64,000 nt of DNA. Source: Kiloniellales bacterium. GTDB lineage: Bacteria; Pseudomonadota; Alphaproteobacteria; Kiloniellales; JAKSDN01. Both the position numbers and the translations under genes were made by a program. A model generated the notes under the pieces. It saw only the letters and a program-made list of their open reading frames with translations, made no database searches and was not told the DNA's origin. The DNA lies in the NCBI GenBank assembly GCA_028280455.1, contig JANQLT010000186.1, positions 9,559 through 73,558 on the forward strand, in the 5' to 3' direction. This document shows positions 26,457-50,693 of the stretch, one piece after another. Within the stretch, counting starts at the first letter, position 1. Every line of letters begins with the position of its first letter.

Positions 26457-26470
26457 CGGTCCAACTCCCC

Positions 26471-32246: not shown

Positions 32247-32256
32247 GGGCGCGCTC

Positions 32257-33248: not shown

Positions 33249-33249
33249 G

Positions 33250-34289: not shown

Positions 34290-35476
34290 AGGCCGATCCG
34301 ATTGGCGCGTGCGGTCAGGAAGATGCCGCTCGGCTTCTCGGCGGGCAGGGCGGCCCGCTCGGCGAAGCTCTGCGTATCGTAGACCTTGACCCGGTCGTCG
34401 TCGCGCGCGGAGATCCAGACCTGCTCGCCGCGCGGCGTGAACTCCATGTGCAGGACGGCCTTGCCCGGCTTCAGGGTCTTGATGACCCGGCGGCTGACGA
34501 CGTCGATTACCTGGACGGCGTCGTTGTTGGGGTGCGCGAAGTTGACCCAGACCTGGCGGCCGTCCGGCCGGGCCACGGCGAAGATCGGTTGGCCCTGCAG
34601 GGCGATGCGGCCGACCTCGCGCCAGCTCCGCCGGTCGACGATCAAGACCTCGTGGCGGCCGACCGCGGGCAGGAACAGGACGTCGCCGGCGCTGGCCCAG
34701 CCTTCCAGGTGCGGCATCTTGTAGACCGGCAGGGGCTCCTCGCCCCGGCCATAGCCGTCGAGGATGCGGCGCGGTCCCGCCTCCAGGTCCCAGAGGTCGA
34801 GCAGCACGATGCCGTCCTCGCCGAACAGCCCGGCGATGTAGTAGCGCCCGTCGGGCGTGATCAGGCCGTCGTAGGGCTGGACCCCGACGTCCTCGAAGCG
34901 CGTGACCTGCGGGTCGCGCGGGTCGCTCATGTCGGCGACCCAGATCTCGCCGGAGTCGTAGAGGCTGAAGACGAAGCGCTGGCCGGGCGCGTCGACCAGG
35001 CCGACCACCTTGGAGCGCGGATCGTCGGGCGCGTCGCGCGCCTCGATGTCCGCCAGGAGCGTCAGGCTCTCGGCATCGAAGATGCGCACGCCGCCGGGGT
35101 CGTAGTTGGAGACCGCGACCATCGAGCCGTCCTGCGAGATCGCCCCGCCGATGGAGTTGCCGGCCTGCACGACCCGCTTGGTCACGCGGCCTTGCAGCAG
35201 ATCGATCTTGCTCAGGCCGCCGTCGCGGCCGAAGAGATAGGCGTAGCGGCCATCGCGCGAGAACACGGCCGAGGCGTGCGAGAGATCGCCCAGGCCGGCG
35301 ACCTGATAGAGCGGCGTCAGGTTGCTCGTCTCGACGACCTGGATGCTGCTCGAGGCACGCTCGACGATCAGACCCATGTCGCCGGTGCCCCGGATCGTCG
35401 TGTTGCAAGCCCCGAGTCCGATTGCCAGCACGACCCCGAGGCCGGCGCGCGCGAGCGTCTCAACGATCATCGCCAA
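34286..35476 (-). CDS. nirF: NirF, cd1-like beta-propeller haem d1 biosynthesis protein (lipobox LGAC)
   Basis: No haem c motif, propeller repeats similar to NirS/NirN, a lipoprotein-type leader LAIGLGAC, and a position between nirC and nirD. Confidence 0.88.
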   Translation of the reverse strand: MAMIVETLARAGLGVVLAIGLGACNTTIRGTGDMGLIVERASSSIQVVETSNLTPLYQVAGLGDLSHASAVFSRDGRYAYLFGRDGGLSKIDLLQGRVTKRVVQAGNSIGGAISQDGSMVAVSNYDPGGVRIFDAESLTLLADIEARDAPDDPRSKVVGLVDAPGQRFVFSLYDSGEIWVADMSDPRDPQVTRFEDVGVQPYDGLITPDGRYYIAGLFGEDGIVLLDLWDLEAGPRRILDGYGRGEEPLPVYKMPHLEGWASAGDVLFLPAVGRHEVLIVDRRSWREVGRIALQGQPIFAVARPDGRQVWVNFAHPNNDAVQVIDVVSRRVIKTLKPGKAVLHMEFTPRGEQVWISARDDDRVKVYDTQSFAERAALPAEKPSGIFLTARANRIGL

Positions 35477-35789
35477 GCCCCTTCTTGAGTTGCCGGACCA
35501 GCCAGGCGGCCTCGCCGGGCCGGATCTCGAAGCGCCAGGGCGGCATCGGCGTGCCGGGCCGGCCGTCCAGGATGACTTCGACCAGCTCGTCGTCCGGGCG
35601 CTCGGCCAGTTGCGCCGGGAGCAGGGCCGGTCCGAGCCCGCCCTTGAAGGTCATGCCGTGGCAGGAGCCGCAGTCGTGCTTGAGGCGATGCAGCAGCTCC
35701 GCCTGCCGGTCGGGCCCGGGCGCCGACTCGGCCGCCAGGGCACCGCTCGCCGACGCGGCAAACAGAAGTGCTATCAGGCACTTAGGCAT
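35460..35789 (-). CDS. nirC: NirC, monohaem cytochrome c55X
   Basis: 109 aa with a signal peptide and a single CGSCH motif. Confidence 0.85.
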   Translation of the reverse strand: MPKCLIALLFAASASGALAAESAPGPDRQAELLHRLKHDCGSCHGMTFKGGLGPALLPAQLAERPDDELVEVILDGRPGTPMPPWRFEIRPGEAAWLVRQLKKGLGDDR

Positions 35790-36585
35790 AGCCGGCTTCC
35801 GCCTCGAGCATCGCCGGCCAGAAGTCGTTGGCCTCGGCGGTCTTGCGTAGGCGGTCGGAGATCGCCACCACGCGACCGATGATGATCAGGGTCGGCGAGG
35901 GCAGGCGCGCGGCGAGGACACGCTGCGGCAGGTCGGCGAGGGTCGCCCGGCAGAGCTCCTGACCCTCGGTGGTGCCCTTCGAGATCGCCATGGCCGGGGT
36001 CGAGCTCGGCAGGCCCTCGGCGATCAGCCGCCGGGCGATCTCCGGTAGCTGCGCCAGGCCCATGTAGACGACCAGCGTCGTGTCCGGGTCCGCGAGGCTT
36101 CGCCAGTTGAGGTCGAGAGGGCGGTCCTCGAGTCGATGGCCGGTGACGAAACGCACGCCGCTGGCGGCGGCGCGATGCGTCAGGGGGATGCCGGCAACGG
36201 CGGCACAGCCCGAGGCGGCCGTGATGCCCGGCACGATCTCGAAGCCGATGCCCTGGTTGATGAGATGCTCGCCCTCCTCGCAGCCGCGACCGAAGATCGT
36301 CGGGTCGCCGCCCTTGAGTCGCACGACGGTCTGGTGCACGCGGGCAAGCTGGACCAGCAGGTCGTTGATGTCGCTTTGCGGCACCGGGTGGCAGCCGCAT
36401 TCCTTGCCGACGAAGATGCGGCCCGTCCCCGCGGGTATCAGCTCGAGAATGCTGGTCGAGACCAGGCGGTCGTAGACCACCACGTCGGCTTCGCGAAGCA
36501 AGCGCAAGGCCTTGAGGGTCAGAAGCTCCGGGTCGCCTGGTCCGGCGCCCACGAGATAGACTTTGGACACGACCGGCTTCGTCAT
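35782..36585 (-). CDS. nirE: NirE/CobA, uroporphyrinogen-III C-methyltransferase
   Basis: ATG at 36585. SUMT motif VYLVGAGPGDPELLTLKALRLL. The upstream 66 codons of ORF ..36783 lie in the promoter region. Confidence 0.9.
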   Translation of the reverse strand: MTKPVVSKVYLVGAGPGDPELLTLKALRLLREADVVVYDRLVSTSILELIPAGTGRIFVGKECGCHPVPQSDINDLLVQLARVHQTVVRLKGGDPTIFGRGCEEGEHLINQGIGFEIVPGITAASGCAAVAGIPLTHRAAASGVRFVTGHRLEDRPLDLNWRSLADPDTTLVVYMGLAQLPEIARRLIAEGLPSSTPAMAISKGTTEGQELCRATLADLPQRVLAARLPSPTLIIIGRVVAISDRLRKTAEANDFWPAMLEAEAGYA

Positions 36586-36658
36586 TGAAGGGGCGACCTC
36601 CTGACCGGGCCAACTGTGGAACGTGATCGAGGCTAGCGAGGATCGGCTTCGCGCATCC

Positions 36659-36672
36659 TTGACCACAGTCAA
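36659..36672. promoter_or_regulatory. FNR/DNR-type box TTGACcacaGTCAA (nirE side)
   Basis: A perfect inverted repeat centred ~80 nt upstream of the nirE ATG. Confidence 0.6.
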
Positions 36673-36735
36673 GTCGGAGAGCAGAGAGCCAAGCTCGGGC
36701 GTCACTCTTTTTTGCGCGATCGCAGTGTCAAGCGC

Positions 36736-36749
36736 TTGACCGTCGTCAA
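36736..36749. promoter_or_regulatory. FNR/DNR-type box TTGACcgtcGTCAA (nirS side), preceded by an extra GTCAA half-site
   Basis: A perfect inverted repeat centred ~116 nt upstream of the nirS ATG. TCAAGCGCTTGA (36728..36739) forms a second overlapping palindrome. Confidence 0.6.
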
Positions 36750-36858
36750 GGCGAAGCCTGCGCGTTGCTCGAAGAATGCACACGGAAAATGGACCTGGGT
36801 CTGGGCCTGCCCCGAACCCACGGGGGGCTTCAGTCCGGTTTTCTGAGGAGGACGCACG

Positions 36859-38594: not shown

Positions 38595-40298
38595 ATGGCA
38601 AAGCTCAGAAACATGAAGATCCTTGGCGCCAGCCTGGTCGGTGCCGCCGTCATCTTCATCGGGGGCATCGTCGCCTGGGGCGGCTTCAACACCGCGATGG
38701 AGGCGACCAACACGACGGGGTTCTGCATCTCCTGTCACGAGATGTTCGACAACGTCTATCAAGAGTACAAGCAGACCATCCACTACGAGAATCGGACCGG
38801 CGTGCGCGCCTCCTGCTCCGACTGCCACGTTCCGGACCCCTGGGTCTGGAAGTTCGTGCGCAAGGTCAAGGCCACCAACGAGCTCTATCATTGGGCTCTC
38901 GGCACGATCGACACCAAGGAGAAGTTCGAGGCCAAGAGGCTGACGCTGGCCAAGCATGTCTGGCAGGACATGAAGGAGACCGACTCCCGGGAGTGCCGCA
39001 ACTGCCACTCCTGGGAAGGCATGCTGGAGACGAGCCAGAAGCGCCGGGCCTGGAAGCAGCACGAGCTGGCGCAGAGCGAGGGCCAGACCTGCATCGACTG
39101 CCACAAGGGCATCGCCCACCGCCCGGTGCATGTCCTGCTCGACGAGGAGGACGATCCCTACGACGGTCTCGCGGACAGCCGCAGCCTGCCGCTCGAGGTC
39201 GCGGCCGTCGAGGCGGCGGCGGTCACGAGCGATGCCGAAGCCGTCGCCGAGCCGGCGCCGGCCGAACAGGAAACCGCGACCAGCGAGCCGGCCCCGGCGC
39301 CCGAGACGGCGCCCGCGGCAACGCAGATCGCGGCCAGCGACGGCATCGACTGGTCCGCCATCGAAGGCCGCACGATCACGCTGCTCTATCCGGGCCAGTC
39401 GTCCATGGAGTGGGTGCTCAAGGGCAGCGACCATAGCGGCGCCCGAGCGATCAAGAAGGTCGGCGACCGCTGCGCCGAGTGCCACCAGGGCGAGGAGGCC
39501 GACATGGGCCAGCGAATCGTCACGGGCGAGAAGCTCGAGCCCCAGGTGATTCCCGGCAAGCGCGGCGCCATCGACGTCACTGCCAAGGCCGCGCATGACG
39601 CGGAGACGCTCTACCTCAACTTCACCTGGGCCCAGGCCGAGCATACGCCGGCACCCTTCGTCGAGGGCGGCAAGATGGACCCGGAGAACGAGGTGAAGCT
39701 GGCGGTCATGCTGATCCCCGAGGCTAACGAGCTCGCCACCCTGGCGGGCTGCTGGGCGACCTGCCACCACGATTCGCGCTACATGCCGGACCACCCGGAC
39801 TCGGCGGCGATCGCCGCCGCCGGCGATCTCATGCAGCGCCTGGAGGCCGACGACGGCGTGACCAAGTACCTGCAGGAGTCGCGCAGCGAGATCGAGGTCC
39901 GGGGCAGCGACGGCAAGCCGCGCGGCGGCTGGGACAAGCTCCTGCCGGCCGACCAGATCGACAGCCTGATGGCGGAGACCCAGTTCATCGACCTGGTCCG
40001 CTACAAGAGCGGTCCCGGTGCCCTTGAGAACGGCTACGTCTTCGAACGGCGTGTCGTCGATGGCGGCCAGCCCTTGTCCGGCAGCGGGGCGGTGGCGGAC
40101 GGCCAGTGGAGCGTCACGCTGGCTCTGCCTCTCGCGGCGACGGAAGCGGGCGACCTGGCCCTCGAAGCCGGCAAGACCTACACCCTCGGCGTCGCCATCC
40201 ACGACGATTTCACCACGGCGCGCTTCCACCACGTCTCCCTCGAGTACCGCCTCGGCTTCGACGATCCCGACGCCGAGATCAACGCGATCGGACAATGA
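38595..40298 (+). CDS. nirT: NapC/NirT tetrahaem quinol dehydrogenase fused via an Ala/Pro/Glu linker to a ~300-aa periplasmic haem domain
   Basis: N-terminal TM helix plus CISCH, CSDCH, CRNCH and CIDCH. Low-complexity linker (residues ~195-250). The C-terminal domain has CAECH and CWATCH. 567 aa. Confidence 0.85.
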   Translation: MAKLRNMKILGASLVGAAVIFIGGIVAWGGFNTAMEATNTTGFCISCHEMFDNVYQEYKQTIHYENRTGVRASCSDCHVPDPWVWKFVRKVKATNELYHWALGTIDTKEKFEAKRLTLAKHVWQDMKETDSRECRNCHSWEGMLETSQKRRAWKQHELAQSEGQTCIDCHKGIAHRPVHVLLDEEDDPYDGLADSRSLPLEVAAVEAAAVTSDAEAVAEPAPAEQETATSEPAPAPETAPAATQIAASDGIDWSAIEGRTITLLYPGQSSMEWVLKGSDHSGARAIKKVGDRCAECHQGEEADMGQRIVTGEKLEPQVIPGKRGAIDVTAKAAHDAETLYLNFTWAQAEHTPAPFVEGGKMDPENEVKLAVMLIPEANELATLAGCWATCHHDSRYMPDHPDSAAIAAAGDLMQRLEADDGVTKYLQESRSEIEVRGSDGKPRGGWDKLLPADQIDSLMAETQFIDLVRYKSGPGALENGYVFERRVVDGGQPLSGSGAVADGQWSVTLALPLAATEAGDLALEAGKTYTLGVAIHDDFTTARFHHVSLEYRLGFDDPDAEINAIGQ

Positions 40299-40738
40299 CG
40301 ATGACGAAGGCCGTGGCTAGAGCCGTCGCCGTCGGGGGGCTTGGGCTTGCCGCGCTCTTGCTTGCTTGGGTGTCGGTTTCCCAGGCCTCGTCGGATGCCG
40401 AGACCGAGAAGATCTGCGCCCAAGCGGAAGAGCGCTATCAGGCGCTCTTCGGGGATCAGCCGCCCGAGGCGGGCGTCGTCGTCGTTCTGATGTACAAGTA
40501 CACCTTCTGCCCGCCGGACCTGGAGGTAAAGGCCGGCACGACCCTGCGCTGGATCAACGTCGACAAGCGCACCAGCCACTCCGTCTGGTTCAAGGAAGAC
40601 GGCAAGCCCGAGTCTGACCGGCTCTTCCCGGAGGAGTTCGTCGACATGACGCTCGATGAGGCCGGCGCCTTCAACTACATCTGCGGCCCCCACGGCGATC
40701 AGGAAAAGATGCGCGGCAAGGTGACCGTGGTTCCTTAG
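40295..40738 (+). CDS. Small periplasmic cupredoxin (type-1 blue copper protein)
   Basis: ATGA overlap with the nirT-fusion stop. Signal peptide. Candidate ligands are His in RTSHSVWF and C-x2-H-x5-M in YICGPHGDQEKM. Confidence 0.72.
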   Translation: MTMTKAVARAVAVGGLGLAALLLAWVSVSQASSDAETEKICAQAEERYQALFGDQPPEAGVVVVLMYKYTFCPPDLEVKAGTTLRWINVDKRTSHSVWFKEDGKPESDRLFPEEFVDMTLDEAGAFNYICGPHGDQEKMRGKVTVVP

Positions 40739-40957: not shown

Positions 40958-41350
40958 CTAACCGAGATGCTTGTGAAGCCGCGAGTCCATGGTCTTGAAA
41001 TGGTCGCCGAACCAAGAGGTTAGCCGCTCCGCCAGGGCTTCTTCCTCGAAGGCGCCGCGGATCTCGTAGTCGTCCATGATCTCACGGATGTCGTCGAGCA
41101 AGCGCTCGTGGTCGGCCTTGTGCTCGGCGAACTGGTCGTAGCCTCGCTCGCGCATGATGCGCTCCTCCAGGGCGAAGTGCGCGACGATCTTAGCATAGAC
41201 CTCACCGAGGAACTCGGCGACCGACACCTCGACATCGGCCTTCATCAAATTGTCGTAGAGGCCGTTGATCAGCTCGATCATCTCGCGGTGCTCGTGGTCG
41301 ACGGCATCGACCCCGACGGCATAGTCCTTCTTCCATTGCAGCAGCGACAT
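40958..41350 (-). CDS. Bacteriohemerythrin
   Basis: 130 aa with di-iron ligand pattern VDHEH..., HFALEE...HKADHERL..., and WFGDHFKTMD. Confidence 0.85.
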   Translation of the reverse strand: MSLLQWKKDYAVGVDAVDHEHREMIELINGLYDNLMKADVEVSVAEFLGEVYAKIVAHFALEERIMRERGYDQFAEHKADHERLLDDIREIMDDYEIRGAFEEEALAERLTSWFGDHFKTMDSRLHKHLG

Positions 41351-41360
41351 CGGTCGGTCC

Positions 41361-41864
41361 TCACATGAAGACGAAGCCGCCCCGATCGGAACGGAAGTCG
41401 ATCACGAAGTTCTGGCGCTCGCGGAGCGCTATAGTCTCGCTTCTTTCATAGTCGAAGCCCTCGCTGCGCGCACTATCCCGCAGCCGGACCGTGATCCGAT
41501 GGGAGCCCGGCGCGACGACGAAGCGGCGATGGACCTGCGACGGCCCGTCGCCCGACAGGCCGCTCGGCGGCAGGGATTCGCGATAGAGCGGCTGGTCGTC
41601 GAGAGTCAGCTCGACCAGGACGGGCAGACGCTCCCGCGGGCAGATCTCCGGCCGGCGCATGTTCGGCGCCAGCTCGTCGAGCTCCTCGGCGGTGAGCTTG
41701 CGGCACTCTCCCTTGCGCTGGGCGCCGTGGGCGAAGCTCAGCATGATCTGCGCCTGGTCGGCCGGGAAGAAGGTGAAGCGCGGCCAATCCGAGAACAGGC
41801 CGAAGAGCAGCGCGATCACCAGATAGACCACCCCCTGGCCGAGGAACTGCAAGGGCCTAGGCAT
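41361..41864 (-). CDS. Membrane-anchored protein of unknown function (one N-terminal TM, two Cys)
   Basis: ATG at 41864 overlaps the upstream stop by 8 nt. FLGQGVVYLVIALLFGLF TM segment followed by a ~130-aa soluble domain. I recognised no family. Confidence 0.55.
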   Translation of the reverse strand: MPRPLQFLGQGVVYLVIALLFGLFSDWPRFTFFPADQAQIMLSFAHGAQRKGECRKLTAEELDELAPNMRRPEICPRERLPVLVELTLDDQPLYRESLPPSGLSGDGPSQVHRRFVVAPGSHRITVRLRDSARSEGFDYERSETIALRERQNFVIDFRSDRGGFVFM

Positions 41865-43449
41865 GGCTGCCGACCTCCTCCTCCTCGAGCCGCTTGCGAA
41901 CCGGCTCCGCCCCGGCGCTTGCCGCCTGGGGCGCCAGGCCGGCCTGGAAATCCTCGATAGCACTTGCGAGGTCGCTCAGCCCGTCCTCGGCGAGCCAAGC
42001 CTGGCCGATTCTCTCGCGCGGCACGCGGCGACGCAGGGCGGGATCCCTTTCGCCCGCCAGCCGTTCCTCCATCCAGGCGACGCCGAAGCGGTGATAGCAG
42101 TCGCCCTCGTGGCAGCCGGCCAAGAACACGCCGGCGGCGAAGCCGCGGCTCAAGGCGTAGTCGATGTAGGAGGGCGGCAAGGCGGCGATGCAGGGCAGGG
42201 CCACGCTGGCCACGTTGGGCAGGTCGAGGCGTTCGAGCTTGGGGCCATGGGCGCAGCCGAAGACGACGACCCCCGACTCGCCGTCGAGGCCCGACGTGGC
42301 GGCTTCCAGGTCCTCTCGAAGGGCGCGCGCCGAGGCCTGCGGCAGCTCGATGCCCGGGATCAGCTCGCTTCGACGCCGGAAGGGCGTGGCGGTCGGACAG
42401 GCGCCCATGCAGATCCCGCAGCTCGTGCAGAGGTCGCTGTCGACCCGGGCCTCGAGGTCGAAGGCCATGCCGTCAGAGCGCGGCACCATCGCGATGGCGT
42501 TGTAGGGGCAGTCGTCCGCGCAGCGCTGGCAGCCGTTGCAGTTGCCGAGATCGACCACCGCGGTGTTGGCCGTGGCTTCAGCTTTGCGCATCGGCGGCAG
42601 CCAGGGCAGGGCGGCGAGCAAGAGGGTCAGGGCCACGGCGAAGCCCCAGACGGCGGCATCGGACAGCCTTTCCATCAAGGGATAGAAGCCCAGGTAGAAC
42701 CAGTCGAGACCCAGCTCGCCGGGTACCGCGGCGAGGTCCGCCGGGCCCTGACTGACGGCCGGCTTCCAGAAGGAGAGCGCCAACAGCATCGCCAGGGTGC
42801 CCACGGCCAGGCCGCGCTTGGGATTGATCTGCGGCCGACTGACCCGCTGCAGGTGAATCCAGAGCACCAGGAGCAGGAGCAGGGGCACGACGATGTGGAT
42901 GAAGATCAGCAGCGTGAAGAAGCGGTCGTCCAGGGCGCTCGCCGTGTTGAAGTTGCGGGCGATCGGCTCGCCGAAGATGCCGAGCCAATCGAGCCAGTCC
43001 GCGGTTTCCAGGGCGATGTACTGCGCCAGTTGATCCCAGACCAGCCAATAGCCCGAGATCCCGGCGATCATGACCAGCCAGAGCACGGGCACGCCCGTGA
43101 ACCAGGTGAACCAGCGCGGCCCGCGGTAGCGGCCCAGGGAGAACTCGCGAAGGACATGGACCACCATCATCAGGACCATGCCGTCGGAGGCATAGCGATG
43201 CAGGCTGCGCATGACGCCGCCGAGATACCACTGCTCGACGGTCATGAACTCGACCGACTCGTAGGCTTCGGTCGTCCCGGTGTCGAACAGGACGTAGACG
43301 TAGATTCCGCTGACCGCGACGACCCAGTAGTAGAAGAAACCGAGAGCGCCAAGCTGGTGCAGCGGATTCCAGCCTGCCGGAAAGACGGCATCCAGCCAGC
43401 GCTCGAGGTGCAGGAAGCACCATCGAAGGGGACGTCGCAGATCGATCAA
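41857..43449 (-). CDS. Fusion protein: di-haem cytochrome b (bc1 b-type N-terminal domain) :: 2x[4Fe-4S] ferredoxin :: MvhD/FlpD-like domain
   Basis: Two H-x13-H pairs in TM helices (HRYASDGMVLMMVVH; HIVVPLLLLLVLWIH). CNGCQRCADDCP and CTSCGICMGACP. VVVFGCAHG...LPC...FLAGCHEGDCYH. Confidence 0.8.
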   Translation of the reverse strand: MIDLRRPLRWCFLHLERWLDAVFPAGWNPLHQLGALGFFYYWVVAVSGIYVYVLFDTGTTEAYESVEFMTVEQWYLGGVMRSLHRYASDGMVLMMVVHVLREFSLGRYRGPRWFTWFTGVPVLWLVMIAGISGYWLVWDQLAQYIALETADWLDWLGIFGEPIARNFNTASALDDRFFTLLIFIHIVVPLLLLLVLWIHLQRVSRPQINPKRGLAVGTLAMLLALSFWKPAVSQGPADLAAVPGELGLDWFYLGFYPLMERLSDAAVWGFAVALTLLLAALPWLPPMRKAEATANTAVVDLGNCNGCQRCADDCPYNAIAMVPRSDGMAFDLEARVDSDLCTSCGICMGACPTATPFRRRSELIPGIELPQASARALREDLEAATSGLDGESGVVVFGCAHGPKLERLDLPNVASVALPCIAALPPSYIDYALSRGFAAGVFLAGCHEGDCYHRFGVAWMEERLAGERDPALRRRVPRERIGQAWLAEDGLSDLASAIEDFQAGLAPQAASAGAEPVRKRLEEEEVGSHA

Positions 43450-43503: not shown

Positions 43504-44364
43504 CTAGCGGATCTCGGACGCGCGTGGCGGCGTGCGGCTCCCGCGCTCGCGCGACCGCGCGGCGAGCAAGGCGCGAAGCAGGAGAATCGCGACTCCGAGC
43601 AGGCTCAAGCCGCCGATCGTGATGGCGAAGAAGAAGGAGTAGTCGAAGCTGTAGCGTTCGCGGGCCGGGTCGTAGAACGTACAGAAGAGGCGGACCCGCT
43701 CTATCAGCGCCTCCACGTCCACCAGGCTTCCGGCCTGACCGAACATCAGGCTCTTTAGCGGCTCGACCAAGGCCGGCGGGTCGAAGCTGGCGCCATAGAC
43801 CTGTTGGTGAACCAGCCCGTCGGAACTGAGGACGCTGGTCTGAGCCAGGTGATCGAAGCCCCTGGGCGAGGGAAAGTAGAGAAAGCCCAGCTCCTCGAGG
43901 AGCTTGTCCAAGTCGACGCCGGTGCCGCTGAGGAAATGCCAGTTGTCGAAATCGATGCCCTGGCTGCTTGCATAGTGATGCATGCGCTCGGGCGTGTCCT
44001 GGGCGGAGTCGAAGCCGATCGTCACGACGGAGAAGCTGTTCTCGCCGAGCGCCTCGATGGCGACGTCGACCGCGTGCTGCAGCGTCTGCACGATGATCGG
44101 ACAGGACTCGACGCAGGCGGTGAACACCAGGTTGACCACCAGGGGCTTGCCGCGGAAGTCGGAAAGCCGCCGCGCCTCGCCGCTCTTGTCCAGGAAGCTG
44201 TAGTCGCCGACCTCGCGGCCCACGGCGGCTTGACTGTAGGCGATGGCGGCGCCGGGATCGAACACCGAGGGCTGAGAGGTCTTGGCGGCCAGCGGCGTCG
44301 CGGCCAGGCCGACCGTGCCTGCGATGCAGACGATCGCCAGCCAAAGCAGGGAAGGGCGAGGCAT
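43504..44364 (-). CDS. SCO1/SenC-like thioredoxin-fold protein with variant CVESCP motif and a C-terminal TM anchor
   Basis: ATG at 44364. Signal/anchor MPRPSLLWLAIVCIAG. FTACVESCP in place of the canonical CPDVCP. C-terminal hydrophobic FFFAITIGGLSLLGVAILLL. Confidence 0.72.
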   Translation of the reverse strand: MPRPSLLWLAIVCIAGTVGLAATPLAAKTSQPSVFDPGAAIAYSQAAVGREVGDYSFLDKSGEARRLSDFRGKPLVVNLVFTACVESCPIIVQTLQHAVDVAIEALGENSFSVVTIGFDSAQDTPERMHHYASSQGIDFDNWHFLSGTGVDLDKLLEELGFLYFPSPRGFDHLAQTSVLSSDGLVHQQVYGASFDPPALVEPLKSLMFGQAGSLVDVEALIERVRLFCTFYDPARERYSFDYSFFFAITIGGLSLLGVAILLLRALLAARSRERGSRTPPRASEIR

Positions 44365-44368
44365 CGGG

Positions 44369-45235
44369 CTAGGCGAGCAGGGCGCGATCGAGGATCGCCG
44401 CCAAGAGCAGGAGTCCGAGCTGCAGCAAGGAAGCCTTGAAGTTGGCCATGGCCGCCAAGGGCCCGGGCCGCAAGACCAGCTTGATCGAGGCGAGAATGAA
44501 CCAGGCCCCTCCGGATATGGCACCGGCCAGGTAGATCCAGCCCAGCCCGTAGGCGGCCGGCAAGAGGGAGAGCAGCACGAGCGCCACGGTATGCCCGAGG
44601 ATGATCTTGGCGGCGAGGGCGTCGCCGACGACGACGGGCAGCATCGGCACGCCGGCCTTGGCGTAGTCCTTGTGCATCACCGTCGCCAGGCTCCAGAAGT
44701 GCGGCGGCGTCCAGAGGAACAGGACCACGGCCAGAATCAGCGGCGCCGGGGCCGGGTTCGGATCCACGGCGGAGGCCCCGGCGAGGACCGCGAAGCTGCC
44801 GGCCAGGCCGCCCAGGACGATGTTCAACCAGGTCCTGGTCTTGAGCCAGACGGTGTAGACGACGCCGTAGACGAAGGCGCCGAGGAAGACGTGCAGGGCG
44901 ACGTAGATGTTGAGGGCGAAGGCGGCCATGGCCACGGAGAGGAACAGCACCAGGAGAATCGCCGACAGCCACAAGGGCCCCGCCTGGTATTCGCCGGTGG
45001 CGAAGGGACGGCGCTTGGTCCGCAGCATCCGCGCATCGAGGTCGCGCTCGACGTACTGATTGAGAGCCCCGGCGCTGGCCGCCGAGAGCAGCACCGCCAG
45101 CGCCAGCAGGACGACCTGCCAGGCTTCGGGCTGCGGGCCGGGCGTCACCGCCAGGCCCGCCAGGGCGCAGAGCATGATCGCAAAGCCGATGCGCATCTTG
45201 AAGACCGACCAGAGTTGCCCGACCGTTGCGCCCAT
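44369..45235 (-). CDS. ctaB: Protohaem IX farnesyltransferase (haem O synthase)
   Basis: UbiA-type polytopic protein with NQYVERDLDARMLRTKRRP (NxxxDxxxD-like motif). 288 aa. Confidence 0.9.
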   Translation of the reverse strand: MGATVGQLWSVFKMRIGFAIMLCALAGLAVTPGPQPEAWQVVLLALAVLLSAASAGALNQYVERDLDARMLRTKRRPFATGEYQAGPLWLSAILLVLFLSVAMAAFALNIYVALHVFLGAFVYGVVYTVWLKTRTWLNIVLGGLAGSFAVLAGASAVDPNPAPAPLILAVVLFLWTPPHFWSLATVMHKDYAKAGVPMLPVVVGDALAAKIILGHTVALVLLSLLPAAYGLGWIYLAGAISGGAWFILASIKLVLRPGPLAAMANFKASLLQLGLLLLAAILDRALLA

Positions 45236-45277: not shown

Positions 45278-46999
45278 CTAGCTGAGCGGCCAGACTTCGG
45301 AGAGGAACTTCCAGTTGATGAAGTAGTAGAGGACGAAAGCGGTGAAGAAGACCGCCACCAGGGTGATCGTGCCCGGCAGCTTGAGGGTCCCCTCGCTGCC
45401 GTAGGTCGAGACGGCCTCGCCGCCGGCGACGATCGGGTTGGCCTTGACCGCCTCGGCGTCACGGCGCTTGCCGAACAGGATCGAGCCGACGATCACCAGG
45501 ATGTACATCAGGCCGCCGACGCCGGCGAGCAGGCCGAAGATGCCGTTCAGGCCGAGCATCAGGAACGCGGTGCCGGGAACGTCGAAGGTCAAGGAGGCAT
45601 CGCTGAAGGTGATGTCCCAGTGACGCCGCGAGATGCCGAGCGTGCCGGCGCCCATCATGAAGAGCGAGGTGCCGCCGACGCCGATGGCGAAGACGTAGGG
45701 TTGCCACTTCGCGATGGTCTTGAACACGAGATCGCGTTGGAAGATCAGAGGCACGACGAGGTAGGAGATCGCCATGAAGGCCAGCGTGGTGCCGGCGACG
45801 ACCGTGGCGTGGAAGTGGCCCGGCACGTAGAGCGTGTTGTGCATCAGGATGTTGATCTGCTCTGTGCCGAGCACGACGCCCGAGATGCCGCCCAGGAAGC
45901 CGAACAGCACGACCGACAGGGCGAAGCCGGAGAAGGCCGGGTTGCCCCAAGGGGCCTGGCGCAGCCAGCCGAAGATGCCCTTGGTGAAGCCGCGCCGCCG
46001 CTGTGCCGCTTCCACCGCGCCCGGAATGCTCATGCCGTGGATCAGGCTGCCGAGCACCGCCAGGTAGAGCGCGTAGCTGGTGTTGAAGACCTTCCACTCC
46101 GAGCTGATGCCGGGCTCGACCAGCATGTGGTGAGCGCAGGCGAGCTGCAGGAACAGGATGTAGAGCAGAAAGGCCGTGCGGCTGACCTTCTCCGACAGCG
46201 GCTTGGCGCCCAGGACCAGGGCGGCGATGCAATACCAGACCGCGACATGGGCCGAGACGTTGATCTGCTGCGAGGAATGACCCATGCCCCACCAAACCAG
46301 CTTGTAGGTCACGGTATCGATCTCGGCGATGTAGCCGATCGACCAGAGGAAGGTCGGGATCAGGATGATCGCGCCGGAGGCGATGGTGAAGACGGCGATG
46401 ATGGCCGCCGTGATCGCGCCGAAGGTGACCAGGGGCACCGAGCCCTCGTAGGTCTGCTCCTCCTTGGCGATGACCAGCGTGCCGAAGAACACGCAACAGG
46501 CCAGGAGCGCGCCGACGGCGAAGAGTATCAGGCCGAGATAGAAGTGCGGTGCGGCCTGCATCGGCACGTAGGAGGTGAACATGACGCTCGATTCGCCCTG
46601 CAGCACCGCGACGGTCGCCAGCAGCGAGCCGCCGACCATCAGCAGGAAGCCGAGCCAGGCGAAATGCGGCGTCGCCAGGCGGCAATTGAGCAGGATCGAC
46701 GAGGCGAAGTAGAGGATCGCGACCTCGAAGAAGATGATCCAGAACAGCAAGACGGCCGCGCCGTGTGCGGTCAGCACCAGGTAGAACAGGTCCGCCGGGA
46801 GCAGATGCACGCCCGGCCAGCGCGTCAGCGCCACCAGCACGCCGAAGAGGCCGCCGACGGCGAGAAACAGCACGGCCGCGACGGCGTTCACCTTTATGAG
46901 GGTCTCGGTCTTGGCGTAGACCTTGAGGCCCGTGTCCAGGCAGGTCCTGTACTTTTCGTCATGCCCTACCAGAGCACCTTCTGCCGTGCTGACACTCAT
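45278..46999 (-). CDS. Haem-copper oxidase superfamily subunit I, B-family-like, lacking the helix-VI cross-link Tyr
   Basis: All six His ligands are present (LTAHG; WWGMGH; CAHHM; PGHFHA), but the motif reads GHSSQQ where A/B-type oxidases have GHPxVY. 573 aa. Confidence 0.9.
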   Translation of the reverse strand: MSVSTAEGALVGHDEKYRTCLDTGLKVYAKTETLIKVNAVAAVLFLAVGGLFGVLVALTRWPGVHLLPADLFYLVLTAHGAAVLLFWIIFFEVAILYFASSILLNCRLATPHFAWLGFLLMVGGSLLATVAVLQGESSVMFTSYVPMQAAPHFYLGLILFAVGALLACCVFFGTLVIAKEEQTYEGSVPLVTFGAITAAIIAVFTIASGAIILIPTFLWSIGYIAEIDTVTYKLVWWGMGHSSQQINVSAHVAVWYCIAALVLGAKPLSEKVSRTAFLLYILFLQLACAHHMLVEPGISSEWKVFNTSYALYLAVLGSLIHGMSIPGAVEAAQRRRGFTKGIFGWLRQAPWGNPAFSGFALSVVLFGFLGGISGVVLGTEQINILMHNTLYVPGHFHATVVAGTTLAFMAISYLVVPLIFQRDLVFKTIAKWQPYVFAIGVGGTSLFMMGAGTLGISRRHWDITFSDASLTFDVPGTAFLMLGLNGIFGLLAGVGGLMYILVIVGSILFGKRRDAEAVKANPIVAGGEAVSTYGSEGTLKLPGTITLVAVFFTAFVLYYFINWKFLSEVWPLS

Positions 47000-47011: not shown

Positions 47012-47551
47012 TTATTCCACGACGTAAATCTTGCCGAGCATCTGATGATGTCCGATGCCACAGAACTCGTTGCAGACGATGCCGAACTCGCCGGTCTCGT
47101 TGGGCGTCAGCGTGACCACCATCTCGTAGTTCGGGTGAACCTGCAGGTTGATGTTGGTCGGCTGCAGCGAGAAGCCGTGCTGCCAGTCCAAGGAGGAGAG
47201 ATGCAGCCGGTAGCTCTGGTCCTTCTCGAGCTCGAGGATCGGCCACCACTCCCAGAGCCGCGCGATGAGATAGACGTCGCTGCCCGGCGGCGGGCGGACG
47301 ACCGGGATCCCGGTGTCTCCCTCTTCGCGGACCGTATAGGCCTCGGCCATTTCCTCCGTCTTTTCGGCGAAGGCGTCGGGCGTGATCCGGTAGGCCTCGT
47401 TGGAGAGGTTCTGCTCCCCGGTGATGTGCCAGTAGATCATCGTCGAGAACATCACCAAGCCCCAGAGGAAGGCGATGGTGATCCAGATGATCTCCATCCG
47501 GTGGAGCGGCTCTTTCCACCAGAGCTTGTTTTCCGGAGGTGTGATAGCCAT
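47012..47551 (-). CDS. Haem-copper oxidase subunit II with a single TM helix and an intact CuA site
   Basis: H-x34-CNEFCGIGHHQM fits the CuA consensus H-x34-CxExCx3Hx2M. 179 aa, ba3-like short form. Confidence 0.88.
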   Translation of the reverse strand: MAITPPENKLWWKEPLHRMEIIWITIAFLWGLVMFSTMIYWHITGEQNLSNEAYRITPDAFAEKTEEMAEAYTVREEGDTGIPVVRPPPGSDVYLIARLWEWWPILELEKDQSYRLHLSSLDWQHGFSLQPTNINLQVHPNYEMVVTLTPNETGEFGIVCNEFCGIGHHQMLGKIYVVE

Positions 47552-47563
47552 GTCAGACGCTCT

Positions 47564-47767
47564 CTATTGCGGCGCGATCGGGATCTGGGCTAGCTCCATG
47601 ATTCCCCAGATGATGTAGAAGACCGTCGGCATCGTGACGCCGAGGAACAAGAGCAGGAACGGGTTGTCGAGCAGGCGCTGCATGGCGGGCACACGCTCGC
47701 TCGGGTCCTTGCCTGCAGCGCTCTTCGTCGGTTCGGACGGCGCCGAAGGTGGTGCTTGGTCGGACAT
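47564..47767 (-). CDS. Small single-TM protein (possible ba3 subunit IIa analogue)
   Basis: A 67-codon ORF with one TM (FLLLFLGVTMPTVFYIIWGI), 12 nt upstream of subunit II. The gene order small-II-I mirrors cbaDBA. The true start may be the internal Met. Confidence 0.5.
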   Translation of the reverse strand: MSDQAPPSAPSEPTKSAAGKDPSERVPAMQRLLDNPFLLLFLGVTMPTVFYIIWGIMELAQIPIAPQ

Positions 47768-47933: not shown

Positions 47934-48620
47934 CTAGCGGTCGAGTCGGCCACGGACGTCCGCCAGCAAGGCGGCCGGCTCCAGGTCCGGGTGGTAGTAG
48001 GACAGAACCCCGCCCTCGGGGCCGAGCAGGTAGAGATAGGCGCTGTGATTCATCAGGTAGTCCTCCGAGTCCTCCCCGACTTTCTCGAAGAAGACCCGAA
48101 AGCTGCTCGTCGCCGCTTTCAGGCTTTGCGCGTCGCCCGTCAGTCCATGGAGACGTGAATGGAAGGCCTCGACATAGCCCGACAGGACCTCGGGCGTATC
48201 GCGGGCGGGATCGACGGTGATGAAGGCGCCCCTTGCGGTCACGCCCTCGCGCTCCAGGTCGTCGAGCAGATCGGCCAGGTGGGACAGGACCGTCGGGCAG
48301 ACGTCCGGGCAGCTCGTGTATCCGAACACGACCAGCAGGGGAGCGCCTTGGAAATCGCCGAGGCGCGCCGGCTGCCCCTTGTGGTCGACGAGATCGAAGT
48401 CGACGTCCAGGCCGATGCCGTTGCCGATCGCGGCATCGGCGACGCGGCCGAGCGGCCCGTCGGCTTCCGGCCTCAGCAGCAGCCACGTCGATGCAACGGC
48501 CAGCGCGATCAACAGCGTGATCGCGAGCGGCCGCAGAACGACGATCGGCAGACCGCGTTTGGTTCCACCCGTCGAGGGCGTCGCCGCCTCGGCCGCTTGG
48601 CTGACTCGCCTGTCACTCAT
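47934..48620 (-). CDS. senC: SCO1/SenC copper chaperone (canonical CPDVCP)
   Basis: N-terminal TM anchor, and GYTSCPDVCP with a downstream His in MNHSAYLYL. ATG at 48620 is preferred over the TTG at 48650. Confidence 0.85.
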   Translation of the reverse strand: MSDRRVSQAAEAATPSTGGTKRGLPIVVLRPLAITLLIALAVASTWLLLRPEADGPLGRVADAAIGNGIGLDVDFDLVDHKGQPARLGDFQGAPLLVVFGYTSCPDVCPTVLSHLADLLDDLEREGVTARGAFITVDPARDTPEVLSGYVEAFHSRLHGLTGDAQSLKAATSSFRVFFEKVGEDSEDYLMNHSAYLYLLGPEGGVLSYYHPDLEPAALLADVRGRLDR

Positions 48621-48721
48621 CGCGCGAAGGCCTCGAAAGAAGACCCTCAAGCAGACCGTAAGGGCGAGTCTGCTACCTTGACCGCGATCAAGCGTCGGCC
48701 GCCGGGCGAGTCGCTTGCAAA

Positions 48722-48735
48722 TTGATTGAGATCAT
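48722..48735. promoter_or_regulatory. Degenerate FNR-type box TTGATtgagATCAT
   Basis: It lies between the divergent senC and Crp/Fnr-family genes, with one mismatch to TTGAT-N4-ATCAA. Confidence 0.4.
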
Positions 48736-48823: not shown

Positions 48824-49558
48824 ATGCAGGTGACCCAGACTGATCGATTCGTACATAGAACGGGGATTCTGGAGCGGGACTTCGAGGTCCTCGCTAGCCT
48901 GCCCCTCTTCTCCAGTATGTCGCGTAGCGGGCTCGAGCACATGCTCGTCGATGCGTGGGTGCACGACATCGAGCGCGGCCATGTCTTGTTCATCCAGGGC
49001 GAGCCGGCCGAGCGCTTCTACGTTGTCTTCGACGGCTGGGTGAAGCTGTTCCGCGAGACGATCTCCGGAGACGAAAGCGTGATCGCGGTCTTCACGACCG
49101 GCGAGTCCTTCGCGGAAGCCGCCATGTTCGACAAGGCGGACTACCCCGTCAGCGCGATGACGGTGGAAGACTCGCGCCTGCTGGTTGTGCCCTCCAGCAC
49201 CTTCATCAACAGGCTTCGTGAGCACAGCGACTATGCCCTCGACATGATGGCGTCGATGTCACGCCATCTGCGTACGCTCGTTCGGCAGATCGAGCAGCTT
49301 TCCGCGAAGTCATCGACCCAGCGGGTCGCCGGTTTCCTGGTGCGCCTCTGTCCGGCGGACGCCCATTCGGCGGTCGTCAGCCTGCCGATCGAGAAGTCCT
49401 TGATCGCCGGCCGGCTGGGCATGCAACCGGAGACCTTTTCGCGATCGCTGAAGAAGCTGCAGGGCCTCGGCGTCAACAATTCGCGCAACGAGGTGGAGAT
49501 CCACGATGTGGTCGCCCTGCGCGAGTACAGCGAAGGCAACCAGCGAATTCGTGCCTGA
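48824..49558 (+). CDS. Crp/Fnr-family regulator without a Cys cluster (NnrR/DNR/NNR-like, candidate NO-responsive activator)
   Basis: cNMP-type beta-roll, no N-terminal Cys motif, and a recognition helix with E--SR (GMQPETFSRSLKKL). Confidence 0.82.
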   Translation: MQVTQTDRFVHRTGILERDFEVLASLPLFSSMSRSGLEHMLVDAWVHDIERGHVLFIQGEPAERFYVVFDGWVKLFRETISGDESVIAVFTTGESFAEAAMFDKADYPVSAMTVEDSRLLVVPSSTFINRLREHSDYALDMMASMSRHLRTLVRQIEQLSAKSSTQRVAGFLVRLCPADAHSAVVSLPIEKSLIAGRLGMQPETFSRSLKKLQGLGVNNSRNEVEIHDVVALREYSEGNQRIRA

Positions 49559-49615: not shown

Positions 49616-50161
49616 CTACTCCGGGTAAGGAACGCGGCGCCGTAGCGCCATGGACCGACCGAAGGCCTCGCAGTCGTCGGCGCCCAAGCGATCGCGGGCA
49701 AGCGGTAGCAGGCGCTCGTTCTCCAATCGAACATGCTGCCGCTTGGCCTCGGCGAAGGTGGCGACCGCGGGCCCGATGTCGTCGGGAGCGCTGCCGGCCT
49801 CATAGAAGGACAACGCCGCTTCCGTCCTCTCCAGCAAGACGGCGTTGCTGCCGTGCTCTTGCTCCAGGGTCTCGATGAGGCTCTCGACTCGGTCGCTCGG
49901 CGGAAAGCAGGCGGCGAGGCGGTGAAAGAGATCCTCTTCGTCGGCGATGTGCAACGGCAGATCGGCCCTCAAGTAGGCCAGCGCTATGTTGGCGCTGGCG
50001 AAAGAGGCGTCGCTCCGCGGATCGACGACGAGGCTGTCCAGGAGATCGCAAACCCTGAGTATGCGTCGATGATCCGCTTGCAGATAGTCGATCGGCCGTC
50101 GAAAGAGGTTCTCGGGCAAGGGATTGATCAATCCCGAACCGGCTCGTTCCACTGAAGGCAT
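49616..50161 (-). CDS. Hemerythrin/HHE cation-binding domain protein (NorA/DnrN-like di-iron protein)
   Basis: PIDYLQADHRRIL, LPLHIADEEDLF and LEQEHG motifs. The start at 50161 was chosen because the FNR-type box at 50228 would otherwise sit too close to the ATG at 50197. Confidence 0.68.
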   Translation of the reverse strand: MPSVERAGSGLINPLPENLFRRPIDYLQADHRRILRVCDLLDSLVVDPRSDASFASANIALAYLRADLPLHIADEEDLFHRLAACFPPSDRVESLIETLEQEHGSNAVLLERTEAALSFYEAGSAPDDIGPAVATFAEAKRQHVRLENERLLPLARDRLGADDCEAFGRSMALRRRVPYPE

Positions 50162-50227
50162 CCGAGTAGTCACGACGCATCCGTCCTCAACCGCCATTGA
50201 TGTTTGTTGGGGTCGAAGCTCGGCGCC

Positions 50228-50241
50228 TTGACAGTTGTCAA
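50228..50241. promoter_or_regulatory. FNR/DNR-type box TTGACagttGTCAA
   Basis: A perfect inverted repeat centred ~73 nt upstream of the ATG at 50161. It overlaps the stop of the convergently unrelated maoC-like gene upstream. Confidence 0.55.
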
Positions 50242-50693
50242 TTGCCTTCACGCGAGGTGGATTGGCGAATGCCAACGAGGCCGGTCGTGACGAGCTCTCC
50301 CGTGGCCTGCCTCTTGACCTCGAGACTGCAGAACACGGCCCTCGGCTCGGTCTTGATGACGGAAGAGACCTCGCCGAGCACGATGTAGTCGTCGCCCACG
50401 GGGGCGACCTTGCTGTTCCGGAATTTCAGGCTGGAGATTTCCGTGCCGGGCCGAAAGGCACGGGAGACAGCCTCGATGCACCAGTTTCCGATCAGGAAGC
50501 CGGGTACGATGATGCCCGGAATGCCCTGCTCGGCGGTGAAACTCCGGTCGTAGTGAAAGCGGTGGAAGTTCCGAATGGCGGCGCAAAAGCGCACGACGTC
50601 GACTTCATTGGGACGCTTCTCGAGCGTCGCCAGCCTGTCGCCCACGCGTGTCGTCGCGAAGGCCAGAGCGTTCTCAGAATAGTATTTGCTCAT
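50238..50693 (-). CDS. MaoC-like (R)-hydratase hot-dog subunit
   Basis: ATG at 50693. FCAAIRNFHRFHYD (hydratase-2-type motif context). 151 aa. Confidence 0.78.
   Translation of the reverse strand: MSKYYSENALAFATTRVGDRLATLEKRPNEVDVVRFCAAIRNFHRFHYDRSFTAEQGIPGIIVPGFLIGNWCIEAVSRAFRPGTEISSLKFRNSKVAPVGDDYIVLGEVSSVIKTEPRAVFCSLEVKRQATGELVTTGLVGIRQSTSREGN

Follow-up and report, generated by a model that had tools for sequence, protein, structure and literature searches.

A cytochrome b fused to ferredoxin and MvhD domains in eNOR-type nitric oxide reductase operons: a candidate Rieske-less electron wire

The stretch of DNA analysed here, called the window below, comprises 64 kb (64,000 nucleotides) of contig JANQLT010000186.1 from a Kiloniellales bacterium (assembly GCA_028280455.1, positions 9,559 to 73,558 of the forward strand). 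Positions are counted from its first letter. A gene on its minus strand encodes a bc1-type cytochrome b that continues into a ferredoxin domain and an MvhD/FlpD domain. The gene is followed by that of a small membrane-anchored partner protein and lies in an operon with a haem-copper enzyme of the eNOR family of nitric oxide (NO) reductases, a neighbourhood that recurs in many genomes. The fusion protein is tentatively read as an electron wire across the membrane that works without a Rieske protein.

Fusion gene and protein domains

The following features were assigned to the fusion gene.

41857..43449, minus strand: fusion gene for cytochrome b, ferredoxin with two [4Fe-4S] clusters and MvhD/FlpD domain, 530 residues (open reading frame, Pfam/NCBIfam, 66-sequence alignment, AlphaFold2)
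42820..43368, minus strand: four-helix core of cytochrome b, residues 28-210, with H84/H98 and H185/H199 (PF00033, cytochrome b6 match, invariant His)
42586..42813, minus strand: helices E and F with the periplasmic ef loop, residues 213-288, Qo-type motif L248-D249-W250-F251 (alignment to PEWY)
42388..42561, minus strand: ferredoxin domain, C304/307/310/314 and C341/344/347/351 (translation, Fer4 family matches)
41926..42291, minus strand: MvhD/FlpD domain, residues 387-508, invariant C399, C420, C446 and C451 (translation, PF02662, profile against 5odc_D)

An earlier note on this DNA had described a tri-domain fusion at these positions, with two H-x13-H pairs in hydrophobic helices, and had suggested a profile search and a topology prediction. 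Its coordinates proved exact, and all three domains were found above the Pfam cut-offs. Cytochrome_B (PF00033) matched residues 28-201 with 71.6 bits against a cut-off of 27.2 (E 1e-19), FlpD (PF02662) matched residues 408-504 with 48.9 bits against 22.3, and several Fer4 families (Fer4/Fer4_7) matched residues 297-354 over their cut-offs. The histidine pairs are H84-x13-H98 and H185-x13-H199, both in hydrophobic helices. The ferredoxin and MvhD/FlpD motifs that the note had quoted are all present in the translation: two of the form CxxCxxCxxxCP (CNGCQRCADDCP and CTSCGICMGACP), and a C-terminal part that reads VVVFGCAHG...LPC...FLAGCHEGDCYH. In an NCBIfam scan no model spanned the full length. 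The best partial matches were cytochrome b of the ExtP/b6 kind and the C-terminal ferredoxin and MvhD part of HdrA2, in which positions 565-768 were matched by residues 290-505. The ferredoxin stretch is homologous to the C-terminal ferredoxin of HdrA/HdrA2, and the region of helices E/F and the ef loop weakly matched NCBIfam ExtQ. No NarI or CCG-domain match was obtained with Pfam and NCBIfam.

A family profile was built from 66 homologues, which are 59-82% identical to the window protein. Searched against solved structures, it retrieved cytochrome b6 (E 1e-25), which bears out the bc1-type assignment of the earlier note, and MvhD (E 1e-10); it also matched yeast cytochrome b across residues 18-283. 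A separate profile of the C-terminal domain matched solved MvhD (5odc_D) with E 5.6e-16 over residues 5-128 of its 140. The four haem histidines, the eight ferredoxin cysteines and C399, C420, C446 and C451 are invariant in 66/66 homologues, as are D249, W250 and Y252. Haem histidines and cysteines are invariant or nearly so even in 20 distant relatives (26-52% identity), the four histidines without exception. The domain assignments are confirmed far beyond chance. Judged by these ligands, the protein would bind two b haems, two [4Fe-4S] clusters and one [2Fe-2S] cluster. C399, C420, C446 and C451 align with Cys13 and three later cysteines of MvhD. Cys16 of MvhD, which sits between the cluster and the HdrA flavin (PMC13580544), has no counterpart in the alignment.

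Topology was predicted from hydropathy and the positive-inside rule. The N-terminus is placed inside, six helices follow, and Lys and Arg are enriched in the predicted cytoplasmic loops. The predicted topology is that of helices A-F of bc1 cytochrome b, and both Fe-S domains, which lie entirely after helix F, are predicted to be cytoplasmic. The AlphaFold2 model (pLDDT 82.5, pTM 0.77) had complex III cytochromes b as its top structural matches in the PDB.

The motif L248-D249-W250-F251 aligns to the PEWY Qo motif of plant and yeast cytochrome b, with Leu instead of Pro in the first position. Residues 103-307 align without interruption to yeast-type cytochrome b (E 5.6e-6), and 207 of 222 distinct family members have xDW[FY]. 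The Qi-site His of plant/bc1 cytochrome b, five residues past the bH ligand, aligns to Ser204, so that this His is missing; an invariant Q201-R202 is carried by the family in that region. By sequence, the periplasmic-side quinol pocket appears to be retained and the cytoplasmic-side Qi quinone site to be lost. The retained Qo-type motif suggests that quinol may be oxidised.

A frameshift or fusion artefact, which the earlier note had considered, is excluded because hundreds of genomes, in independent assemblies, encode the same architecture; the reading frame, with a TTG start, is intact and has a uniform G+C content at third codon positions of 0.89. The best 120 database matches are all about 520-550 residues long, nearly all with the same set of Pfam domains. 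The Fe-S motifs are present in 221 or 222 of the 222 distinct proteins recovered from genome loci.

Partner gene

41361..41864, minus strand: 167-residue partner, N-terminal transmembrane helix and periplasmic beta-sandwich (stop/start overlap with the fusion gene; fused in relatives)

Fusion gene and partner gene share 8 nt, where the stop of the former overlaps the start of the latter (ATGCCTAG). Full-length relatives of 690-720 residues are numerous, and their additional C-terminal part is a homologue of the partner (P0122 with 46% identity and E 3e-42, P0178 with E 2e-14). The fused form accounts for 69 of the 222 distinct proteins (median 702 residues) and the split form for the other 153 (median 525 residues), in which the partner is normally encoded by the next gene. 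The partner belongs to the same unit because about a third of the relatives carry it as a C-terminal fusion. It completes this unit by adding a seventh helix and a periplasmic beta-sandwich, and in the fused proteins its domain must be periplasmic. The fusion protein is therefore not the self-contained module that the earlier note had taken it for.

The partner has no Pfam family and is annotated as hypothetical. Its AlphaFold2 model (pLDDT 89) consists of one transmembrane helix followed by a generic beta-sandwich; no PDB match was found below E 0.01, and the fold gave no clue to the function. Four residues are invariant (H46, C54, M69 and C75), and a fifth, H122, is conserved to at least 90%. 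These residues could form a metal site or include a structural disulfide.

A doubtful proposal gives the partner the place of the Rieske protein. As a periplasmic metalloprotein with His46/Cys54/Met69/Cys75/His122 as ligands, it would split quinol electrons between NO reduction on the outside and the Fe-S outlet on the inside. The ligand set would then most plausibly bind copper, loaded by an SCO protein of the operon. Fusion protein and partner would together form a new kind of quinol:eNOR oxidoreductase, and NO respiration would be coupled directly to a cytoplasmic acceptor, either hemerythrin or a low-potential carrier.

Operon

The remaining features of the operon and its promoter region are as follows.

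40958..41350, minus strand: bacteriohemerythrin, 130 residues, last gene of the operon (NCBIfam NF033749, 95.8 bits against a cut-off of 84)
43504..44364, minus strand: SCO1/SenC-like copper chaperone with CVESC motif and N- and C-terminal transmembrane helices (Pfam SCO1-SenC, translation)
44369..45235, minus strand: haem O synthase CtaB/CyoE (TIGR01473, 252 bits against a cut-off of 210)
45278..46999, minus strand: subunit I of an eNOR-family haem-copper enzyme, GHSSQQ (PF00115; alignment to Thermus thermophilus ba3)
47012..47551, minus strand: eNOR subunit II with CuA motif CNEFCGIGHHQM (weak CoxB and NosZ C-terminal matches)
47564..47767, minus strand: 67-residue protein with one helix, heading the eNOR genes (position conserved in almost all loci)
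47934..48650, minus strand: second SCO1/SenC protein, probably the first gene of the transcription unit (Pfam SCO1-SenC, E 2e-45)
48678..48735, no strand: two FNR/Dnr-type boxes, TTGACCGCGATCAA and TTGATTGAGATCAT (in the promoter region from which the operon and a crp/fnr-family gene diverge)
48824..49558: Crp/FNR-family regulator (adjoins the FNR/Dnr boxes)

In the direction of transcription the order is SCO, 67-residue protein, subunit II, subunit I, haem O synthase, SCO-like protein, fusion protein, partner and bacteriohemerythrin. As the earlier note had proposed, the fusion gene appears to be co-transcribed with a CuA-type haem-copper enzyme and a downstream hemerythrin: all genes share the minus strand, and those from the haem-copper enzyme to the hemerythrin are separated by 10-54 nt, except for one 8-nt overlap. 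Over the whole order the gaps range from about 10 to 170 nt. The two FNR/Dnr boxes are the only matches with at most one mismatch in the window.

When subunit I was aligned to T. thermophilus ba3, GHSSQQ stood opposite GHPIVY. Gln replaces the cross-linked Tyr, and the HH and HFH His ligands are kept. Gln at the Tyr position is diagnostic of eNOR (PMC8756737), and the enzyme is assigned by sequence to the eNOR family of NO reductases. An sNOR (norSY-senC of ammonia oxidisers) is ruled out because the Tyr position is occupied by Gln.

Two distinct SCO1/SenC proteins are encoded in this operon, and the one adjacent to the fusion protein has an unusual extra C-terminal transmembrane helix. Its likely start is the ATG at 44364; the open reading frame reaches to 44523. 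An SCO gene directly upstream of the fusion gene is conserved across loci.

No Rieske gene is present among the assigned operon genes of the window, and none turned up among ten recurrent unlabelled neighbour families from about 180 loci that were scanned with Pfam. An HdrA-type flavoprotein or hydrogenase gene was likewise found neither in the operon nor among the scanned recurrent neighbour families.

A 219-residue hemerythrin-HHE protein without NCBIfam name (49616..50275, minus strand) adjoins the Crp/FNR regulator; homologues recur by the regulator in loci L001, L002, L024, L026 and L034. With such neighbours, the fusion protein might be a sensor whose Fe-S clusters and haems, cofactors that react with NO, report the redox or NO state to a Dnr/FNR regulator. 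This role is highly improbable. A conserved, membrane-spanning chain of five cofactors is the signature of an electron wire, the protein is without an output domain, and it is linked to structural and assembly genes, while the regulator is often absent from the locus.

Distribution and gene linkage

Linkage was sampled in three ways, with the fusion protein, eNOR subunit I and distant relatives as seeds. All 26 loci seeded on the fusion protein (26/26) have the order smallTM-II-I-ctaB-sco-cytb-partner-hemerythrin as far as the contigs reach, and nirS is often less than 10 kb away. With subunit I as seed, at least 574 genome stretches were matched. The survey comprised the best 80 loci of these, 73 of which extend far enough downstream to be testable. 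Fusion gene and partner gene are present in 73/73, and hemerythrin follows the partner in 68/73 of these proteobacterial loci. At about 30-40% identity and with other gene orders, as seen in Nitrospirota, Nitrospinota and 'Deltaproteobacteria', genes for haem-copper oxidase (HCO), ctaB and sco are still found as neighbours, even where they lie on the other strand. Linkage to eNOR and nir genes is tight, ancient and strongly conserved, in line with the co-occurrence that the earlier note had thought worth surveying.

The family occurs in at least 599 species genomes, so that the fusion is common and not, as that note had it, unusual. Carriers include Nitrospinota, Nitrospirota, 'Deltaproteobacteria', Magnetococcales, Zetaproteobacteria, large sulfur bacteria, Woeseiaceae and iron oxidisers, with Mariprofundaceae and a Gallionellaceae-like genome (locus L030). 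Thioalkalivibrio denitrificans ALJD and Elongatibacter sediminis CH-27 are cultured carriers. A link to the biochemically studied eNOR of Rhodothermus marinus was not established, since R. marinus was not among the matches. The fused form is carried by a 'Rhodothermales' metagenome-assembled genome (MAG), and its closest relatives are gammaproteobacterial.

The range of carriers bears on a rival explanation, in which the protein couples energy by electron bifurcation. The first electron would be pulled by NO or nitrite reduction, and the semiquinone would drive the second uphill to ferredoxin or NAD(P)H, which amounts to reverse electron transport within an NO reductase operon. Reverse electron transport was proposed for a flavin-containing paralogue in a preprint on Ferrigenium straubiae (bioRxiv 10.64898/2026.01.22.701106). 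A Qo motif that is kept, a Qi site that is lost and a cytoplasmic Fe-S outlet would suit such a device, and the MvhD and HdrA-type ferredoxin modules derive from low-potential electron-bifurcating systems. Several carriers are lithoautotrophs, which depend on reversed electron flow (L030, Mariprofundaceae, Thioalkalivibrio, large sulfur bacteria, Nitrospinota, Nitrospirota). Most, however, are MAGs of Alpha- and Gammaproteobacteria (Rhodospirillales, Kiloniellales, Woeseiaceae, Hyphomicrobiales), groups assumed to be largely heterotrophic and without obvious need for it. No conserved ferredoxin, flavoprotein or HdrA-like gene that could encode an acceptor was found beside the fusion gene among the scanned recurrent neighbour families, and the cysteine that faces the HdrA flavin in MvhD, Cys16, is without counterpart (PMC13580544). 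Bifurcation is considered rather unlikely.

Variants and paralogues

In Magnetococcales the fusion and partner genes lie directly upstream of nirS-nirF...nirDL-nirJ (loci L131, L121 and L170; for example L131:7962-13833, plus strand, in Magnetococcus sp. MYC-9, where they head the nirS cluster). These loci lack a hemerythrin gene, and neither the 8 kb upstream nor the remainder of the locus contains a haem-copper gene. This linkage argues for a supply of electrons to denitrification and not for a maturation role specific to eNOR.

A divergent protein resembling HCO subunit I, of about 480-500 residues, has the motif GGGH[IV]LQF and keeps the HxH haem ligands without the HH metal ligands. It accompanies the fusion gene in 24 of 77 distant loci (for example L030:6020-7516, plus strand, and L027:5323-6759, minus strand), has no NCBIfam name and is not encoded in the window. 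In one protein (P0256) a six-helix cytochrome b of the present kind is fused directly to it.

A diflavin paralogue, P0155 (L030:10001-12484, plus strand), consists of the six-helix cytochrome b and a CysJ-like flavodoxin-FAD-NAD(P) part in place of the Fe-S/MvhD part. It shares the operon with the Fe-S/MvhD form: L030 encodes a 603-residue cytochrome b-Fer4-FlpD protein, a 167-residue partner and the 827-residue cytochrome b-diflavin protein, and an NnrS gene follows.

These two variants bear on a further rival, electron input from the cytoplasm. A low-potential donor would reduce the Fe-S clusters and then the haems, from which quinone would be reduced at the pocket on the periplasmic side, as in di-haem succinate:menaquinone reductases, or eNOR or NirS directly, which would bypass the quinone pool for rapid NO removal. 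This direction is downhill for ferredoxin-type clusters, the diflavin paralogue suggests the same direction, and the fusion of cytochrome b to an HCO-like protein suggests direct transfer between haems in the membrane. Such input is nevertheless improbable: the scanned neighbour families hold no conserved donor gene, export from the negative to the positive side would dissipate the membrane potential, and the co-transcribed hemerythrin would be left unexplained.

A serious rival, though an unlikely one, is a reductase for biogenesis or maintenance of the enzyme. A cytoplasmic donor would feed electrons through the Fe-S clusters and haems to the partner, which would reduce Cu(II), Fe(III) or a disulfide so that SCO proteins can load CuA or FeB. 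The protein would then be a functional analogue of CcoG of cbb3 oxidases or of haem reductases of the PepSY_TM/FRE type. Its gene stands after ctaB and sco and ahead of nothing catalytic; in the Ferrigenium-like locus L030 it lies among UbiA, PCuAC, CtaG and SCO1 genes, and one relative is an SCO1-cytochrome b-Fer4 fusion. The NADPH-diflavin paralogue is laid out like the NOX/FRE transmembrane metal reductases, and the conserved Cys, Met and His of the partner are typical Cu(I) ligands. Precedents exist in CcoG, a membrane-bound cupric reductase with two [4Fe-4S] clusters and an Ig-like domain at its periplasmic C-terminus, whose gene lies shortly after HCO structural genes (PMC7558416), and in a haem-dependent PepSY_TM protein (CrpH) that supports HCO function (PMC13038864). 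Against this, the Magnetococcales genes stand with nirS and haem d1 genes in loci that encode no copper enzyme, and the retained Qo-type quinol motif is left unexplained. The lone SCO1 fusion could be a read-through artefact of adjacent genes, the divergent relative P0200 is without the partner Cys residues, and there is no similarity to CcoG, NosR or FixG_C.

Replacement of the O2-dependent haem A synthase CtaA by the fusion protein was also considered (ctaB is present in the operon and ctaA absent). The idea is weakened because COX15/CtaA genes coexist with the cluster, flanking it in about 20 related loci.

Proposed electron route

The reading that is tentatively preferred is that of a respiratory transmembrane electron wire, without Rieske protein and without Qi site, that would serve eNOR, or NirS in Magnetococcales. 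Its substrate, the direction of electron flow and the partners are inferred as follows. Six membrane helices would hold two b haems stacked across the membrane. Directly after helix F, in place of the Qi site, a cytoplasmic Fe-S chain would follow, with two [4Fe-4S] clusters and then an MvhD-type [2Fe-2S] cluster. Quinol would be oxidised at the periplasmic Qo-type pocket (LDWF). The first electron would leave on the periplasmic side to CuA of eNOR (or to NirS in Magnetococcales), perhaps by way of the periplasmic domain of the partner or a nearby cupredoxin. The second would pass from haem bL to bH and along the Fe-S relay to an acceptor dissolved in the cytoplasm. For most Proteobacteria the obvious candidate is the hemerythrin of the same operon, and as long as NO is present it would be held in the reduced state. 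In sipunculids, cytochrome b5, a haem b protein, is the physiological reductant of methaemerythrin.

The electron wire is preferred because xDW[FY] is kept and the Qi His lost, because the partner is fused and the linkage to eNOR and nir genes conserved, because FNR/Dnr boxes precede the operon, because cytochrome b is fused to an HCO-like protein in P0256, and because homologues were detected in the proteome of denitrifying Ferrigenium cultures.

Several points weigh against it. No member of the family has been characterised biochemically. Since a Rieske protein is absent, no acceptor is proven for the first electron from quinol. Ferredoxin-type clusters usually have potentials far more negative than quinol. 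The proposed direction would therefore be uphill, unless the electrons are bifurcated or the clusters are of high potential. Flavodoxin-FAD-NAD(P) modules normally pass electrons from NADPH into haem proteins, so the diflavin paralogue suggests the opposite direction. The fusion gene stands among the assembly genes ctaB and sco, and the window already encodes a NirT-type quinol dehydrogenase and a cupredoxin next to nirS. Hemerythrin, which the earlier note had suggested as the redox partner, is a possible one in view of its place in most proteobacterial loci but not an obligatory one, because it is absent beside the fusion gene in Magnetococcales, Nitrospirota and Nitrospinota.

Other genes of the window and related loci

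Upstream in the window lies a nirS island with nirN, nirJ, nirF, nirC, nirE, nirS, a NirT-EB_dh fusion gene and a cupredoxin gene. The accessory set for haem d1 biosynthesis and nirS is complete (28765..36783, minus strand: CbiX-like, nirN, nirJ, nirF, nirC, nirE); the stretch of 32.2-34.3 kb between nirJ and nirF was left without annotation. The eNOR appears to be the NO reductase of this island because no cNOR or qNOR was noticed among the annotated genes of the 64 kb, nor was nosZ.

The NirT-EB_dh gene (38595..40298, plus strand) directly follows nirS and precedes the cupredoxin gene (40295..40738). Its 567-residue product combines a NapC/NirT tetrahaem quinol dehydrogenase (residues 16-178) with an EB_dh haem b domain (residues 252-548) that resembles the gamma subunit of ethylbenzene dehydrogenase. 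The trio of nirS, NirT-EB_dh and cupredoxin genes stands beside the eNOR cluster in at least 9 other loci, including L010, L012, L022, L031, L039, L123, L141 and L168. At the edge of the island, a 720-residue, three-domain multicopper oxidase is encoded (25014..27176, minus strand), with an N-terminal extension of about 290 residues that has no family match.

In 25 related loci a NosR-like membrane flavo-Fe-S protein is encoded convergent to the end of the eNOR cluster; it scored 776 bits with the NosR model, under the cut-off of 1000. A gene for the flavin transferase ApbE follows the cluster in 11 loci. Examples of these NosR/ApbE genes are L009:12508-14679 (minus strand) and L024:12496-13518 (minus strand); neither gene is present in the window.

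Significance

Much of the NO reduction and N2O formation in the environment is attributed to enzymes of the eNOR type (PMC11214002). A single representative has been purified, and artificial donors were used in its assays. The five-cofactor protein, found with all proteobacterial eNOR operons that were sampled, is evidently the part still missing from eNOR wiring, and could be the electron donor, an energy-coupling device or an assembly factor. If the electron wire is correct, a complete cytochrome b that still has its Qo pocket would for the first time be seen to function without Rieske protein and without Qi site. Both the wiring of such enzymes into the cell and the possible conservation of energy at this step are of interest to specialists in bioenergetics and the nitrogen cycle. 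The question is directly testable because cultured carriers exist: T. denitrificans, E. sediminis and Magnetospirillum magneticum AMB-1, the last of which is genetically tractable.

Comparison with known systems

The best sequence and structure matches of the fusion protein are cytochromes b of bc1/b6f complexes. Shared features are the homologous four-helix di-haem core, the H-x13-H pairs, helices E and F and the Qo-type motif of the ef loop. Unlike in bc1/b6f, there is neither Rieske protein nor cytochrome c1/f, the protein has six helices only, without G and H, Ser stands in place of the Qi-site His, and cytoplasmic Fe-S domains are fused after helix F.

In QmoC (HdrE plus an HdrC-like part), DsrMK and Hme, a di-haem membrane cytochrome b is combined with [4Fe-4S] clusters on the cytoplasmic side, and the Qmo complex has an MvhD-like domain. 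The likeness to these systems is one of layout only. The ferredoxin and MvhD stretch matches the C-terminus of HdrA2. Their cytochrome b, in sulfate reducers, is of the NarI/HdrE type with an unrelated fold, whereas that of the fusion protein is of the PF00033 type. The eNOR operon also lacks HdrA/QmoA/QmoB flavoproteins and CCG domains of the HdrB/D type, and belongs to denitrification and not to sulfur metabolism. The expression 'mini-Qmo', used in the earlier note, is a fair analogy if it is understood as built on another b, because the cytochrome b is bc1/b6-type and not NarI/HdrE-type.

To the MvhD of Mvh-Hdr and to Elp/Flx the C-terminal domain is homologous over the full length (E 5.6e-16), and its four invariant Cys align to Cys of MvhD. 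It differs from the soluble MvhD subunit as a domain of a membrane protein, without Cys16 and without a hydrogenase or Hdr partner.

CcoG, NosR/NirI and NapH are similar in role and layout only: they are polytopic, carry two cytoplasmic [4Fe-4S] clusters and are encoded beside the enzyme they serve. They have no haems, their clusters are of the Fer4_5/NapH type, and no sequence similarity of the fusion protein to CcoG, NosR or NapH was detected. Pfam gave no match to Fer4_5/NapH or FixG_C in the fusion protein or the 167-residue partner.

The architecture is already known at the sequence level. The earlier note knew of no characterised protein with it, and none of its members is characterised; the architecture itself, however, was described in 2014 (PMC4122944) and similar proteins in 2026. 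Kao and Hunte named a 'PDWF-FeS' clade of cytochrome b with an xDWF Qo motif, 4Fe-4S and MvhD domains and no Rieske gene in the cluster, named M. magneticum AMB-1 as a carrier, and described a sister form in Alicycliphilus denitrificans that is fused to ferredoxin and flavin oxidoreductase domains (PMC4122944). The window protein has the same domains, LDWF, no Rieske neighbour and a family with flavin-containing paralogues. By the description of the clade, it is placed in PDWF-FeS. That paper gives a remark at the sequence level, without the eNOR linkage, the fused partner domain or hemerythrin, and the main eNOR paper leaves accessory genes undiscussed in its main text. As far as we found, the universality beside proteobacterial eNOR, the fused partner domain and the alternative linkage to nirS had not been stated before.

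A published counterpart of the gene layout is the operon of F. straubiae (bioRxiv 10.64898/2026.01.22.701106), in which genes for eNOR subunits II and I, haem O synthase and sco1 are accompanied by those for two proteins derived from cytochrome b. The first has [Fe-S], the second FAD/NAD(H) domains as well; the proteome of denitrifying cultures contained both, and a quinol:NAD+ oxidoreductase supercomplex was proposed. By description and gene layout, this operon is of the same kind as that of L030. The preprint omits the MvhD domain and the partner and calls the arrangement 'rather unusual'; in the loci sampled here it is the rule for proteobacterial eNOR operons.

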